Positions 45,112 to 48,503 of a stretch of DNA of 64,000 nt are shown here, one piece after another (positions within the stretch are counted from its first letter, which is position 1; every line of letters begins with the position of its first letter). This stretch comes from an uncultured Victivallales bacterium (GTDB lineage: Bacteria > Verrucomicrobiota > Kiritimatiellia > UBA8416). The notes below the pieces were generated by a model that saw only the letters and a list, made by a program, of their open reading frames with translations, was not told where the DNA came from and made no database searches. The translations under genes were made by a program, and so were the position numbers. The stretch is taken from the NCBI GenBank assembly GCA_964609395.1, contig CAZSRU010000001.1, positions 7,324-71,323 of the forward strand. Direction: 5' to 3'.

Positions 45112-46050
45112 TTAACCGATCAACTGCAGCACGCTCTGCGGCAAGGCGTTTGCCTGTGCCAGCATAGCGGTACCGACCTGCGTCAGGATCTGCTGCTTCA
45201 TGAAGTTCGTGGATTCCAAGGCCATATCCGTGTCGCGGATCTGGCTCTCAGCACCCATGATGTTCTCCTGATAGCTGCGGATACCTTCCAGCGAATGGCC
45301 AAGCCGACTGGCCTCGGCACCCAGCGTCGCCCGCGCCTTGCTGAGGTGGTCGACCGCCAGTTTCAGCACGGCGGTTGCGCGCTGCGCACCTGCCATGGTC
45401 GAAATCTGGATGCCGCCACCGATGTCCGAGATTCCGCGTGCAAGCACCATCGACCAGTGGATTTCCTGCTGAGTCGTTACCGCGCCGACACCCGCGAACT
45501 GACCGCACGAGAACGTGATGAACGTTTCGCCGAGAACGGCCGTGCTGTTGGCATGCAGTGCCAGCGACGTTCCGCAGAACAACTGTCCCGGATCCGCGCC
45601 GACCTGAGTGACCAAACCATTGCTACCCTGGAACAAATTGGCTGTGTTGAATTTACCGCGCGCCAAACTGCCGGTTGTGATTCGTGTGATTTCCGCCTGC
45701 ATCTGCTCAAATTCCACCTGCAGATTGTCGCGGTCCGTCTGTGTTTTCGTTCCATCGGCCGATGCCACGGCGAGTTCGTTCATCCGGTGCACCATATCGT
45801 GGATCTTCTGCATCCAGGAATCCGCCGTACGCATGTAAGCCTGGGCATTCTGGATGTTCTGAGCCGCCATGCTCGAATTGCGGATCTGCGAACGCATACG
45901 TTCGCTCATCGCCAAGCCAGCCGGATCATCCGACGCCGTCGTGATGCGCAAACCGCTGGACAGCTTGCTCATCGATGAGCGCATGCTATTCACGCTGGAC
46001 GCATAGTTAACCCACACACCGAACGCGGGAACGTTATTGTATACTTGCAT
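45112..46050 (-). CDS. fliC: Flagellin (short D0-D1 type), paralog 1 (start at MQVYNN ATG 46050, RBS GGAGG)
   Basis: Flagellin N-terminus (KLSSGLRITTASDDPAGLAMSERMRSQIRN) and C-terminus (STNFMKQQILTQVGTAMLAQANALPQSVLQLIG). Confidence 0.9.
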   Translation of the reverse strand: MQVYNNVPAFGVWVNYASSVNSMRSSMSKLSSGLRITTASDDPAGLAMSERMRSQIRNSSMAAQNIQNAQAYMRTADSWMQKIHDMVHRMNELAVASADGTKTQTDRDNLQVEFEQMQAEITRITTGSLARGKFNTANLFQGSNGLVTQVGADPGQLFCGTSLALHANSTAVLGETFITFSCGQFAGVGAVTTQQEIHWSMVLARGISDIGGGIQISTMAGAQRATAVLKLAVDHLSKARATLGAEASRLGHSLEGIRSYQENIMGAESQIRDTDMALESTNFMKQQILTQVGTAMLAQANALPQSVLQLIG

Positions 46051-46453
46051 GATCTTCCTCCGTGATTTTGTCTTCACTTTTGAATTTTCACCTTAAGAGT
46101 TAGCATCCTTGCTTTCTCTGACTTATGCCGCTATCCGTTTTCTTTGGGTCGCTTATGCCGGAGGATTGCGAGCTCTATGCCGGTTTCCTCGACCCCTCGC
46201 GATGTTGTAATCTATTTCCGAGTTCCATTCCCCCCTTTTCTTTTGACTGACGCTTAATCTGGACGGCCGACACCGCATCGGCCTCCCCGCACAGTCGTAG
46301 ATTCGGTATCCAGACCCCGGTGCTTAAACAAGGCATCATATTTTCCAGCGATCTGCGGTGGCGTCGGCAGAAGTTGCCCATCGCGGTAGGGGTGCCGCCC
46401 GCGGTGATGGCAGTATTTTCCGTTTCAAGGGCTCTGATCATGCAGTTTCCGTG

Positions 46454-46469
46454 TGGCATCCGTGGTGCT
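46454..46469 (+). promoter_or_regulatory. sigma54 promoter TGGCATccgtgGTGCT upstream of fliW-csrA
   Basis: Exact spacing; ~70 nt before the fliW ATG. Confidence 0.5.
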
Positions 46470-46537
46470 TTAGAGAAGCAGCCAAGTCGAGAGGCAACGC
46501 GAACACGGAGGCGGTAAAACAAACGAGGGACGCAGCT

Positions 46538-47062
46538 ATGAACACGAAGTCGATATACGAAGACGCGATTGTTGTTAAACCTTATTCGAGGCTGGTCTCC
46601 TTGACGATCCGGCCGGAGCATGTATTCCATCTCCCGCAAGGCCTGCCTGCCTTTGAGGGATTCAAGAATTACATTTTCACGATCAAGCCGGATACCAGTC
46701 CATTTATTTTCATGCAATCAATTGAGCCCGCCGGCCTTTCGTTTGTCTGTATTGACCCCTTCCTGGTGTATCCGGATTATGCGCCCCGTATCGGGACCGC
46801 CGACCAGGATCTTCTTCGTCTTGCCCGCCCGGAAGCGCTGATGTTGTTAAGCATCGTGACCGTGCGCGCCGATGAACGCGAAACAACGGCGAATCTACAG
46901 GGACCCCTGGCGATCAATATTGAAAACTCGATCGGCAAGCAGATTCTCTGCGATGGGCAGACTTATCCGGTGCGGTATAGGATCTGGGATGCCATCAGCC
47001 AGGACGAAACGACGCTCGATCAGGCTTCCGTGCGGTACGGCATTGAGTATGCTAGCGCATAG
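46538..47062 (+). CDS. fliW: Flagellar assembly factor FliW (CsrA antagonist); start moved to MNTKS ATG 46538 (RBS GAGGGA)
   Basis: FliW-family sequence (FEGFKNYIFTI...LLSIVTVRAD...TANLQGPLAINI) directly upstream of csrA. Confidence 0.85.
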   Translation: MNTKSIYEDAIVVKPYSRLVSLTIRPEHVFHLPQGLPAFEGFKNYIFTIKPDTSPFIFMQSIEPAGLSFVCIDPFLVYPDYAPRIGTADQDLLRLARPEALMLLSIVTVRADERETTANLQGPLAINIENSIGKQILCDGQTYPVRYRIWDAISQDETTLDQASVRYGIEYASA

Positions 47063-47132
47063 ATGGAACGGGGCATGATGAGAATGGCAGCTAATGGTTT
47101 ATTGAAAACGCGACAGGCCAAGGAGGGCCGCT

Positions 47133-47366
47133 ATGCTAGTACTGACAAGGAAGTTGGAAGAGAGCGTGATGATCGGCACGGACATCGAGGTGCGCGTACT
47201 GGGGGTACATGGCGATCAGGTGCGATTGGGTTTTTCGGCACCTAAAACGGTTTCGGTTTTCCGCAAGGAAGTGTTCGATGCGATTCAGGAGGAAAATCGG
47301 CAGGCGGCCAGTCCGGACAAGGTTGGACTGGCGGCGTTTGCCGAATCGTTTAAACGACGGGGTTAA
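47133..47366 (+). CDS. csrA: Carbon storage regulator CsrA
   Basis: MLVLTRKLEESVMIGTDIEVRVLGV...VRLGFSAPKTVSVFRKEV matches CsrA almost residue-for-residue. Confidence 0.95.
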   Translation: MLVLTRKLEESVMIGTDIEVRVLGVHGDQVRLGFSAPKTVSVFRKEVFDAIQEENRQAASPDKVGLAAFAESFKRRG

Positions 47367-47517
47367 TCCAAGGTCCGTTCCAGGGCTGGATTATGGAAAG
47401 GAGGTGACGGGAGTCAGTCGGGGTTGGAATGCACTGCCGCCGGTGCAGTGCACAGGGCGCCATGGGCGGTCTGGAGTGATGCCGGTGTTGTAAATGAGGA
47501 TTCAATGCTAACAAGAA

Positions 47518-47553
47518 GGGGCAAGGACGCCCCAGATTAAAAATCAAGGAGGA
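47518..47553 (+). promoter_or_regulatory. Putative CsrA binding sites in the flagellin 2 leader: GGA in a hairpin loop (GGGGC-AAGGAC-GCCCC) plus GGA overlapping the Shine-Dalgarno AAGGAGG
   Basis: Stem-loop 47518..47533 with an AAGGA loop; second GGA at the SD 47546..47553; arrangement mirrors known CsrA-hag regulation. Confidence 0.5.
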
Positions 47554-47561
47554 GAGAGAAA

Positions 47562-48503
47562 ATGCAAGTATATAATAACGTTCCCGCATTTGGTGTCTGG
47601 GTGAATTATTCGGCTAGCGTGGAGAACATGCGCAACTCGATGGGTAAACTGTCCAGCGGTATGCGTATTAACACGGCTGCGGATGATCCGGCTGGTTTGG
47701 CGATGAGTGAGCGTATGCGTTCACAGATCCGCAATTCCGGTATGGCGGCCCAGAATATCCAGAACAACATTGCGTACATGCGGACGGCGGATTCATGGAT
47801 GCAGAAGATTCATGACCTGCTGCATCGGATGAACGAGATGGCGGTGGCGGCTAACGACGGCACCAAGACGCAGACGGATCGCGACAACCTGCAGGTTGAG
47901 TTTGAGCAGATGCAGCAGGAAATCGTCCGGATTACCACCGGGAGCCTGGCTCGCGGTAAGTTCAACACGGCGAATCTGTTTGCCGGTTCCGGCAATGGCC
48001 TGGTCACGCAGGTCGGTGCCGATCCAGGGCAGTTGTTCTGCGGAAGCTCGATGGCTCTGCATGCAGGCAGCACCGTGGGGATTGGGTCGACGTTCGTCAC
48101 GTTCTCGTGCGGGCAGTTCGCGGGTGTAGGTGCGGTTCCGAATGAGCAGGAAATCCGCTGGTCGATGGTGCTGGCGCGGGGTAATACGGACATTGGCGGT
48201 GGGATTCACATCTCGACGCTACATGGTGCCGCCCGTGCCACAGCCGTGCTGAAGTTGGCGGTTGACCACCTGAGCAAGCAGCGGGCGACCATGGGGGCGG
48301 AGTCAAGTCGGTTGAACCACTCCCTGGAAGGGATCCGGAGCTATCAGGAAAACATCATGGGTGCCGAAAGCCAGATCCGCGACGTGGATATGGCCATGGA
48401 GTCCACGCTGTTCATGAAGTACCAGATCCTGACGCAGGTCGGCACCGCGATGCTGGCGCAGGCAAACGCCTTGCCGCAGAGCGTCATGCAGTTGATCGGC
48501 TAG
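47562..48503 (+). CDS. fliC: Flagellin (short D0-D1 type), paralog 2
   Basis: About 85% identical to paralog 1, with identical termini. Confidence 0.9.
   Translation: MQVYNNVPAFGVWVNYSASVENMRNSMGKLSSGMRINTAADDPAGLAMSERMRSQIRNSGMAAQNIQNNIAYMRTADSWMQKIHDLLHRMNEMAVAANDGTKTQTDRDNLQVEFEQMQQEIVRITTGSLARGKFNTANLFAGSGNGLVTQVGADPGQLFCGSSMALHAGSTVGIGSTFVTFSCGQFAGVGAVPNEQEIRWSMVLARGNTDIGGGIHISTLHGAARATAVLKLAVDHLSKQRATMGAESSRLNHSLEGIRSYQENIMGAESQIRDVDMAMESTLFMKYQILTQVGTAMLAQANALPQSVMQLIG

Follow-up and report, generated by a model that had tools for sequence, protein, structure and literature searches.

A flagellar filament locus of a PVC bacterium with two head-to-head flagellin genes around fliW-csrA, predicted CsrA operators and a conserved cysteine pair

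In Bacillus subtilis the flagellin gene hag follows the two regulatory genes in the order fliW-csrA-hag, and the Hag-FliW-CsrA partner switch is also known from Campylobacter jejuni, Borrelia burgdorferi and Clostridioides difficile. Flagellin mRNAs under FliW-CsrA control carry a two-site CsrA operator (PMC6529632, PMC4894983, PMC6070490), and in C. jejuni the main target of CsrA is flaA (PMC4894983). Duplicated flagellin genes, such as flaA and flaB of Campylobacter and the fla genes of Alteromonadales, are known to evolve in concert, and fla has been counted among the genes with long-lasting recurrent conversion (PMC6053082). The locus analysed here lies in a 64-kb stretch of DNA (the window), which falls within the 120.5-kb metagenome contig JGI 3300020048, and it contains two closely similar flagellin genes, flaL and flaR, placed head-to-head around fliW and csrA. 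The explanation that best accounts for the whole, and which we hold to be likely, is a filament locus with two flagellins under predicted CsrA control, whose coding sequences have been kept alike by gene conversion and which share a conserved pair of cysteines. Literature searches found no direct work on the FliW-CsrA-flagellin system in bacteria of the Planctomycetes-Verrucomicrobia-Chlamydiae (PVC) superphylum, to which sequence and covariation evidence would now extend this flagellin checkpoint.

The products of flaL and flaR both exceed the Pfam cut-offs for the two flagellin domains (97-102 bits against 26.6 for PF00669, and 79-81 bits against 23 for PF00700). A sequence-only reading of this DNA had proposed that two flagellin genes of about 85% identity flank fliW-csrA, and the paralogue alignment that it recommended, with 265 of 313 residues identical (85%), bears this out, as do the domain matches and the coordinates. 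Its description of the pair as both convergent and divergent holds only in the latter part: flaL, on the minus strand, is divergent from fliW-csrA, flaR lies downstream of csrA and is co-directional with it, and the two flagellin genes are head-to-head, nothing in the arrangement being convergent. At the DNA level the pair forms an inverted repeat with arms of about 940 bp (45113-46061 and 47551-48502) that are 80-81% complementary, the similarity being bounded by the ribosome-binding site at the start and the stop codon at the end. In the list of open reading frames (ORFs) flaL begins with the GTG at 46077; translation more likely starts from the ATG at 46050, because a strong Shine-Dalgarno sequence precedes it and every homologue begins MQV(Y/F)NN. 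An AlphaFold2 model of the flaR product (predicted local distance difference test score 85.7) has the D0/D1 flagellin coiled-coil fold with a D1 beta-hairpin, and its closest solved folds, found by Foldseek with probability 1.0, are the short flagellins 8jmv, 6t17 and 5wjw; a profile search of the PDB likewise returned flagellin 8jmv (E-value 6.5e-72). The filament-related genes fliD, fliS, flgK and flgL belong to the same cluster.

Eight related contigs were retrieved through their flagellins, whose identity to the flaR product lies between 86% and 55%, and these together with the window make nine loci; a metagenome scan with a FliW alignment contributed five further complete loci and three partial ones, so that 14 complete loci from PVC metagenomes are available in all. 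The layout of asnB-like gene, fliD and flaL on one side, divergent from fliW, csrA, flaR, a gene for a conserved protein, maf and fliS on the other, is found in the 14 complete loci with constant orientation. All eight related contigs have fliD and flaL divergent from the block that runs from fliW to fliS, and in most of them the asnB-like gene lies beyond fliD. The FliW-based scan also gave variants with a single flagellin gene. The closest flagellin homologues carry the source labels Kiritimatiellia, Lentisphaerae or Verrucomicrobia, and the host is a PVC bacterium, probably of the Kiritimatiellia. This breadth of conservation bears on the suggestion that one of the two copies is a silent or decaying spare and that the pair has no joint function, which we judge very unlikely: every genome has the two ORFs in intact form, the ratio of nonsynonymous to synonymous substitution rates (dN/dS) is about 0.1, both genes retain a strong Shine-Dalgarno sequence, a CsrA operator and their own terminator hairpins, and the two-gene layout persists across lineages about 45% apart in flagellin protein sequence.

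All 20 flagellin leaders examined carry two GGA sites: a hairpin displays the first in its loop, and the second overlaps the Shine-Dalgarno sequence. The stem-loop core, GC-NNGGAN-GC (GCNNGGANGC), lies 39-65 nt 5' of the start codon; of 18 leaders, 17 match it exactly and the remaining one has a variant, while the Shine-Dalgarno sequence takes the form WTCAVGGAGGA at -15 to -21 in 18/18. The stems of the hairpin vary between loci yet remain complementary (88% paired), and their covariation score of 0.664 compares with 0.196 in shuffled sets, none of 500 of which scored as high, and with 0.20 or less when the pairing was slid. RNAalifold found this hairpin, the predicted CsrA site BS1, as the sole consensus structure in both the flaL and the flaR leader sets, and the minimum-energy fold of each window leader contains it as well. 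Because the two-site GGA operator occurs in both leaders, both genes are predicted targets of the FliW-CsrA-flagellin partner switch. Apart from the CsrA sites the upstream regions of flaL and flaR are unrelated, and the distance from hairpin to Shine-Dalgarno sequence differs consistently across loci (33-49 nt for flaL versus 22-29 nt for flaR), so that the two genes appear to be long-standing separate regulatory units; differential regulation of flaL and flaR is plausible from these leader sequences.

Further features of the upstream regions may be recorded separately. A GG-N10-GC element near -130 in five of nine flaL loci was considered as a sigma-54 promoter and dropped as a promoter call; the element in the window scores 8 of 12, 26% of 266-nt pieces drawn at random from the window do at least as well, and by eye it falls within a hairpin with covarying stems. 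Neither flaL nor flaR has a match to the sigma-28 consensus 5' of it, a simple scan for sigma-70 promoters and terminators gave nothing above shuffled sequences except the flaL terminator, and Rfam gave no match at gathering score anywhere in the window and none in 44900-48700 at E-values up to 1. An orphan motif resembling a Shine-Dalgarno sequence, A(A/C)AGGAGG(T/C)G, lies at -137 to -202 in eight of nine flaL and seven of nine flaR leaders, where we estimate the chance expectation at about 0.04 per leader; no start codon at working distance from it opens an ORF of more than eight codons, and it could be an mRNA stabiliser, a ribosome standby site or a third CsrA site. Inspection by eye also shows more hairpins with covarying stems 5' of the CsrA hairpin, at equivalent positions in related loci, such as GGGTCG...CGACCC around a CCGG...TCGCAATCC loop for flaL and TGCACTG...CAGTGCA around GCCGGTG for flaR, together with repeated CCGG motifs; these were not recovered by RNAalifold.

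On the proposed model, the locus would be the late-flagellar, or filament, locus of a PVC bacterium, in which two genes for structural flagellins stand head-to-head on either side of fliW-csrA; flaR would occupy the position of hag in B. subtilis, and flaL would be a second, inverted copy beside fliD. As a partner switch requires, fliW and csrA are present and are linked to a flagellin gene. CsrA is predicted to block translation of the flaL and flaR mRNAs, and free cytoplasmic flagellin to bind FliW; once the flagellin had been exported, FliW would be freed and would bind CsrA, so lifting the block. With the partner switch acting on both mRNAs, synthesis of both subunits would follow secretion, and the two flagellins would probably co-assemble into one filament. 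The binding by CsrA and by FliW is predicted from sequence. One observation on related organisms weighs against this model, namely that cultured Kiritimatiellota (Pontiella) have a full flagellar gene set, yet flagella and motility were not observed in them (PMC10880615).

The two flagellin copies within each genome are 77-94% identical, and flagellins from different genomes fall to about 55% identity. In a nearest-neighbour analysis of the 14 genomes that share the layout, a copy is as a rule most closely related to its partner in the same genome, the exception being the three closest genomes. Same-genome copies have identical insertions and deletions (indels) in the variable region, and the two copies in L089 have both lost the second of the cysteines discussed below. 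The paralogues of L086 contain a tract, codons 251-290, in which 96-100% of synonymous codons are identical (Fisher p = 2e-4), and those of L088 a tract, codons 161-210, in which all are (Fisher p = 0.008); the number of synonymous substitutions per synonymous site (dS) between paralogues is 0.50-0.57 in L086 and L088, versus at least 0.8 between all genomes. Same-genome nearest relatives, shared indels and mosaic tracts together argue for recurrent gene conversion in this clade. This conversion appears to be confined to the coding sequence, because the similarity stops at the ribosome-binding site and at the stop codon; occasional events of this kind would keep the flagellins alike while the leader and upstream region stay gene-specific.

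There are, however, results that count against conversion, above all in the window itself. The window pair is near synonymous saturation, with a proportion of synonymous differences (pS) of 0.54 and a dS of 0.94, so the last homogenisation there is old. Towards the 3' end of this pair synonymous identity rises (79% versus 55%, p = 0.0035), but ortholog controls partly match this signal (64-71%), and recent conversion in the window is therefore not supported. Co-adaptation of subunits for shared assembly could also be the source of part of the within-genome similarity. It might be proposed from such evidence, and from the three closest genomes, whose N- and C-terminal regions group by side, L with L and R with R, that no conversion has taken place at all, and that an ancient duplication has stayed about 85% identical only through purifying selection and the co-adaptation of subunits that share a filament. 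We consider this unlikely, since it leaves unexplained the variable-region indels common to same-genome copies, the near-identical synonymous tracts in L086 and L088, and the low paralogue dS of these two genomes. Recurrent conversion in the past of the clade remains the preferred reading. Where the sequence-only reading saw in the pair a possible substrate for recombination or gene conversion, this holds for the history of the clade, to which the mosaic tracts and shared indels testify, but not for present activity in the window, where a dS of 0.94 and a longest exact match of 26 nt make the arms a poor recombination substrate. The clade illustrates cleanly how conversion can homogenise two coding sequences and yet leave the regulatory leaders distinct.

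The same inverted repeat, flanking a 1.5-kb segment that holds both promoters, invites the idea of an invertible switch, in which recombination between the arms would flip fliW-csrA, both promoters and the 5' halves of the genes to give phase or antigenic variation; conversion between the arms has, after all, clearly occurred in the clade. The arrangement of the loci leaves this idea with hardly any probability. No inverted isomer is found in any locus examined: fliW-csrA is co-directional with, and points to, the maf-side flagellin in the 14 complete loci, in several partial ones, and in a second assembly, L002, that covers the locus from csrA rightward. The annotated genes of the window, from which a few short ORFs not scanned are excepted, include none with a recombinase domain. 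The brevity of the longest exact match counts against a switch too, and the leader features are L- or R-specific across genomes, when repeated crossovers would mix them. With no inverted isomer in the loci examined and no recombinase domain among the nearby genes scanned, a flip switch is unlikely.

Each of the two flagellins has exactly two cysteines, all encoded by TGC codons, in the motifs LFCG and FSCGQF. The sequence-only reading had pointed out the two cysteines and their motifs, and its further claim that cysteine is rare in flagellins also stands. In a background set of flagellins no more than 53% identical, mostly from other phyla, taken from the matches listed in a genome-collection scan with a flagellin alignment, 73 of the 76 from other phyla are free of cysteine and none has two; and of 148 diverse representatives of flagellin clusters, 119 lack cysteine and 17 have at least two. 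That reading would have been weakened by a lack of conservation in relatives, and the pair proves to be conserved: of the 120 closest homologues, both cysteines are present in 86, the first only in 12, the second only in none, and neither in 22, these last being mostly relatives no more than 56% identical with threonine or serine at both positions. The top covarying partner of position 160 is position 183, and position 183 has higher-ranking partners only in the adjacent 185 and 186; among 45,451 pairs this one stands at rank 102, in a score of a kind that shared ancestry inflates. In the AlphaFold2 model of the flaR product C160 is the last residue of strand 158-160, the second of the D1 beta-hairpin; an insert of about 60 residues comes next, and it contains C183. 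Known filament structures of short flagellins indicate that this variable part should face outward.

The conserved cysteines would most likely touch in this surface-exposed part of the protein, and an intramolecular disulfide between them under oxidising conditions is plausible. That the second cysteine never occurs alone, and that the two are best non-adjacent covarying partners, fits a pair better than two independent sites. Several facts tell against a disulfide. The first cysteine stands alone in 12 relatives, including both L089 copies, so that a disulfide is not obligatory and cannot be its only role; the sister lineages have serine or threonine at both positions; and the hosts probably live anaerobically, a setting where a disulfide outside the cell could remain reduced. 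The two cysteines may instead serve as small buried side chains, stay as free thiols or be covalently modified, an alternative that we rate as a serious one, though short of even. The neighbouring Maf might attach an S-linked sugar, or subunits might be joined in the manner of the cysteine-derived lysinoalanine cross-link of the spirochete hook protein FlgE. To the solitary first cysteines and the replacements in sister lineages, serine and threonine being the usual Maf acceptor residues, this alternative can add that a maf gene is always adjacent and that other PVC flagellins have a cysteine at a different site, in the motif WASLIC; it sits poorly with the mutual covariation of the two positions and with the absence of any solitary second cysteine. 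That the pair is covalently bonded in the assembled filament, whether within one subunit or between subunits, we think doubtful. If it were so, the stiffness or stability of the filament would depend on redox state in mostly anaerobic PVC bacteria, as a natural counterpart of engineered disulfide-stabilised flagella, and this in a phylum whose flagella are not known to have been seen. Among distant flagellins of the Verrucomicrobiota type, seven (L003, L004, L006, L098, L109, L094 and L106) lack the C160/C183 pair; those of L003, L004 and L006 have their conserved cysteine in WASLIC, just after an invariant tryptophan, and the other four have one cysteine each. PVC flagellins seem to tolerate cysteine with unusual frequency.

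The neighbourhood of the pair includes candidates for flagellin modification. The maf gene adjoins flaR in all loci. The gene for an asparagine-synthase-like amidotransferase directly follows fliD in 8/10 loci with annotated genes (the window, L083-L086 and L089-L091), which suggests a role in flagellar modification, for example glycan amidation. In L087 it and fliD are replaced beside flaL by genes (1131-3412) for a PseB-like epimerase/dehydratase and a PseC-like DegT aminotransferase, which would support nonulosonic-acid glycosylation of these flagellins. The conserved protein of about 155 residues encoded between flaR and maf has no match in Pfam, in NCBIfam or in a profile search of the PDB; it is probably helical and may be a flagellin-specific or Maf-specific accessory factor.

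The whole of the window is a single flagellar and chemotaxis cluster. It begins with che genes, fliOPQR, flhBAFG and the sigma-28 gene, followed by flgL, fliM, motAB and hook, rod and export genes; the middle part has two sigma-54 activators with their kinases and then the asnB-like gene, fliD and flaL; and beyond the block from fliW to fliS come flgFGAHI, flgK and rpoN. The presence of sigma-28, sigma-54 and two activators points to a multi-tier flagellar hierarchy like that of Vibrio or Campylobacter. A candidate third flagellin with a Flagellin_N domain only was rejected, as it is flgL (TIGR02550, 186 bits), which lies far from flgK, and two neighbouring MotB-like genes follow motA. The coordinates of these features are collected in Table 1.

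Table 1. Features of the flagellin locus and of the surrounding cluster, in window coordinates
Feature	Position	Strand	Remarks
flaL	45112..46050	-	Flagellin paralogue adjoining fliD, 312 aa; Flagellin_N 102 bits, Flagellin_C 78.6 bits
flaR	47562..48503	+	Flagellin paralogue 3' of csrA, 313 aa; Flagellin_N 97.2 bits, Flagellin_C 80.7 bits
fliW	46538..47062	+	174 aa; Pfam FliW 111.9 bits, cut-off 25; position same in all related loci
csrA	47133..47366	+	77 aa, C-terminal extension; Pfam CsrA 84.6 bits, cut-off 27
fliD (filament cap)	43492..44967	-	Downstream of flaL; FliD_N and FliD_C domains
asnB-like glutamine amidotransferase (asparagine-synthase-like)	41562-43478	-	TIGR01536, 413 bits
Conserved protein of about 155 aa	48584..49057	+	Between flaR and maf; present in 9/9 loci
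maf-like gene (motility accessory factor, putative flagellin glycosyltransferase)	49057..50871	+	MptE-like, 114.5 bits
fliS (flagellin chaperone)	50885..51325	+	Pfam FliS 107.8 bits
flaL leader hairpin, AGGA in loop (predicted CsrA site BS1)	46096..46119	-	Core GCAAGGATGC at 46103-46112; in minimum-free-energy fold; motif in 9/9 flaL leaders
flaL Shine-Dalgarno ATCACGGAGGA (predicted CsrA site BS2)	46056..46066	-	
flaR leader hairpin GGGGC-AAGGAC-GCCCC (predicted CsrA site BS1)	47518..47533	+	
flaR Shine-Dalgarno ATCAAGGAGGA (predicted CsrA site BS2)	47543..47553	+	
flaL intrinsic terminator	45018..45047	-	3' of flaL, before fliD; 12-bp stem then 9-T run; preceded by a 12-bp hairpin that begins right after stop codon
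flaR 3' hairpin	48522..48557	+	Perfect 14-bp hairpin without T run, right after stop codon; read from sequence
flaL C159 codon	45574-45576	-	
flaL C182 codon	45505-45507	-	
flaR C160 codon	48039-48041	+	
flaR C183 codon	48108-48110	+	
Orphan Shine-Dalgarno-like motif AAAGGAGGTG	47397..47406	+	163 nt 5' of flaR
Degenerate counterpart of orphan motif	near 46236	-	
Further upstream hairpins, flaL	46140-46190	-	Seen by eye
Further upstream hairpins, flaR	47430-47455	+	Seen by eye
Sigma-28-like factor, rpoN (sigma-54) and two sigma-54 activators with kinases	15154-15927; 32669-34153; 39424-40800; 60893-62443	+; -; -; +	
flgL	17354-18280	+	Flagellin_N only
flgK	58358-59815		
Two MotB-like genes	20292-21817	-	

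Comparison with the best-described systems places each part of the locus. Like the Maf glycosylation loci of Campylobacter, Helicobacter, Aeromonas and Magnetospirillum, it has an MptE-like maf beside a flagellin gene and fliS; unlike them, it shows no genes for the synthesis of nonulosonic acids (pseudaminic or legionaminic acid) within the 64-kb window, to which this negative applies, and the match of its maf-like gene to the PseD model is weak (47 bits, cut-off 670). Engineered cysteine pairs in Salmonella FliC are exported, assembled and form disulfides in filaments (PMC6637544), and that engineered protein illustrates that flagellins with paired cysteines can be exported and assembled, and that they oxidise spontaneously outside the cell. 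Its cysteines were, however, designed at D0/D1 interfaces and link different subunits, whereas the pair described here is natural and conserved in a clade, lies in the variable region that should face outward, and would most likely join residues of one subunit. In contrast to flaA/flaB of Campylobacter and fla of Alteromonadales, the copies in the window are inverted and split by fliW-csrA rather than tandem, conversion ends exactly at the ends of the coding sequence, and the last event in this genome is old. The closest likeness is to the Hag-FliW-CsrA switch: the order fliW-csrA-flagellin matches that of B. subtilis, the leader presents one GGA in the loop of a hairpin and another within the Shine-Dalgarno sequence, CsrA is long (77 aa), and fliS and fliD are nearby. 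It differs from that switch in its PVC host, in the extra orphan motif about 160 nt upstream, and in having two flagellin targets, head-to-head around the regulators and both with a predicted operator. The locus adds a new lineage to those with a FliW-CsrA-flagellin module, here with two predicted targets instead of one, and it does not overturn current understanding.

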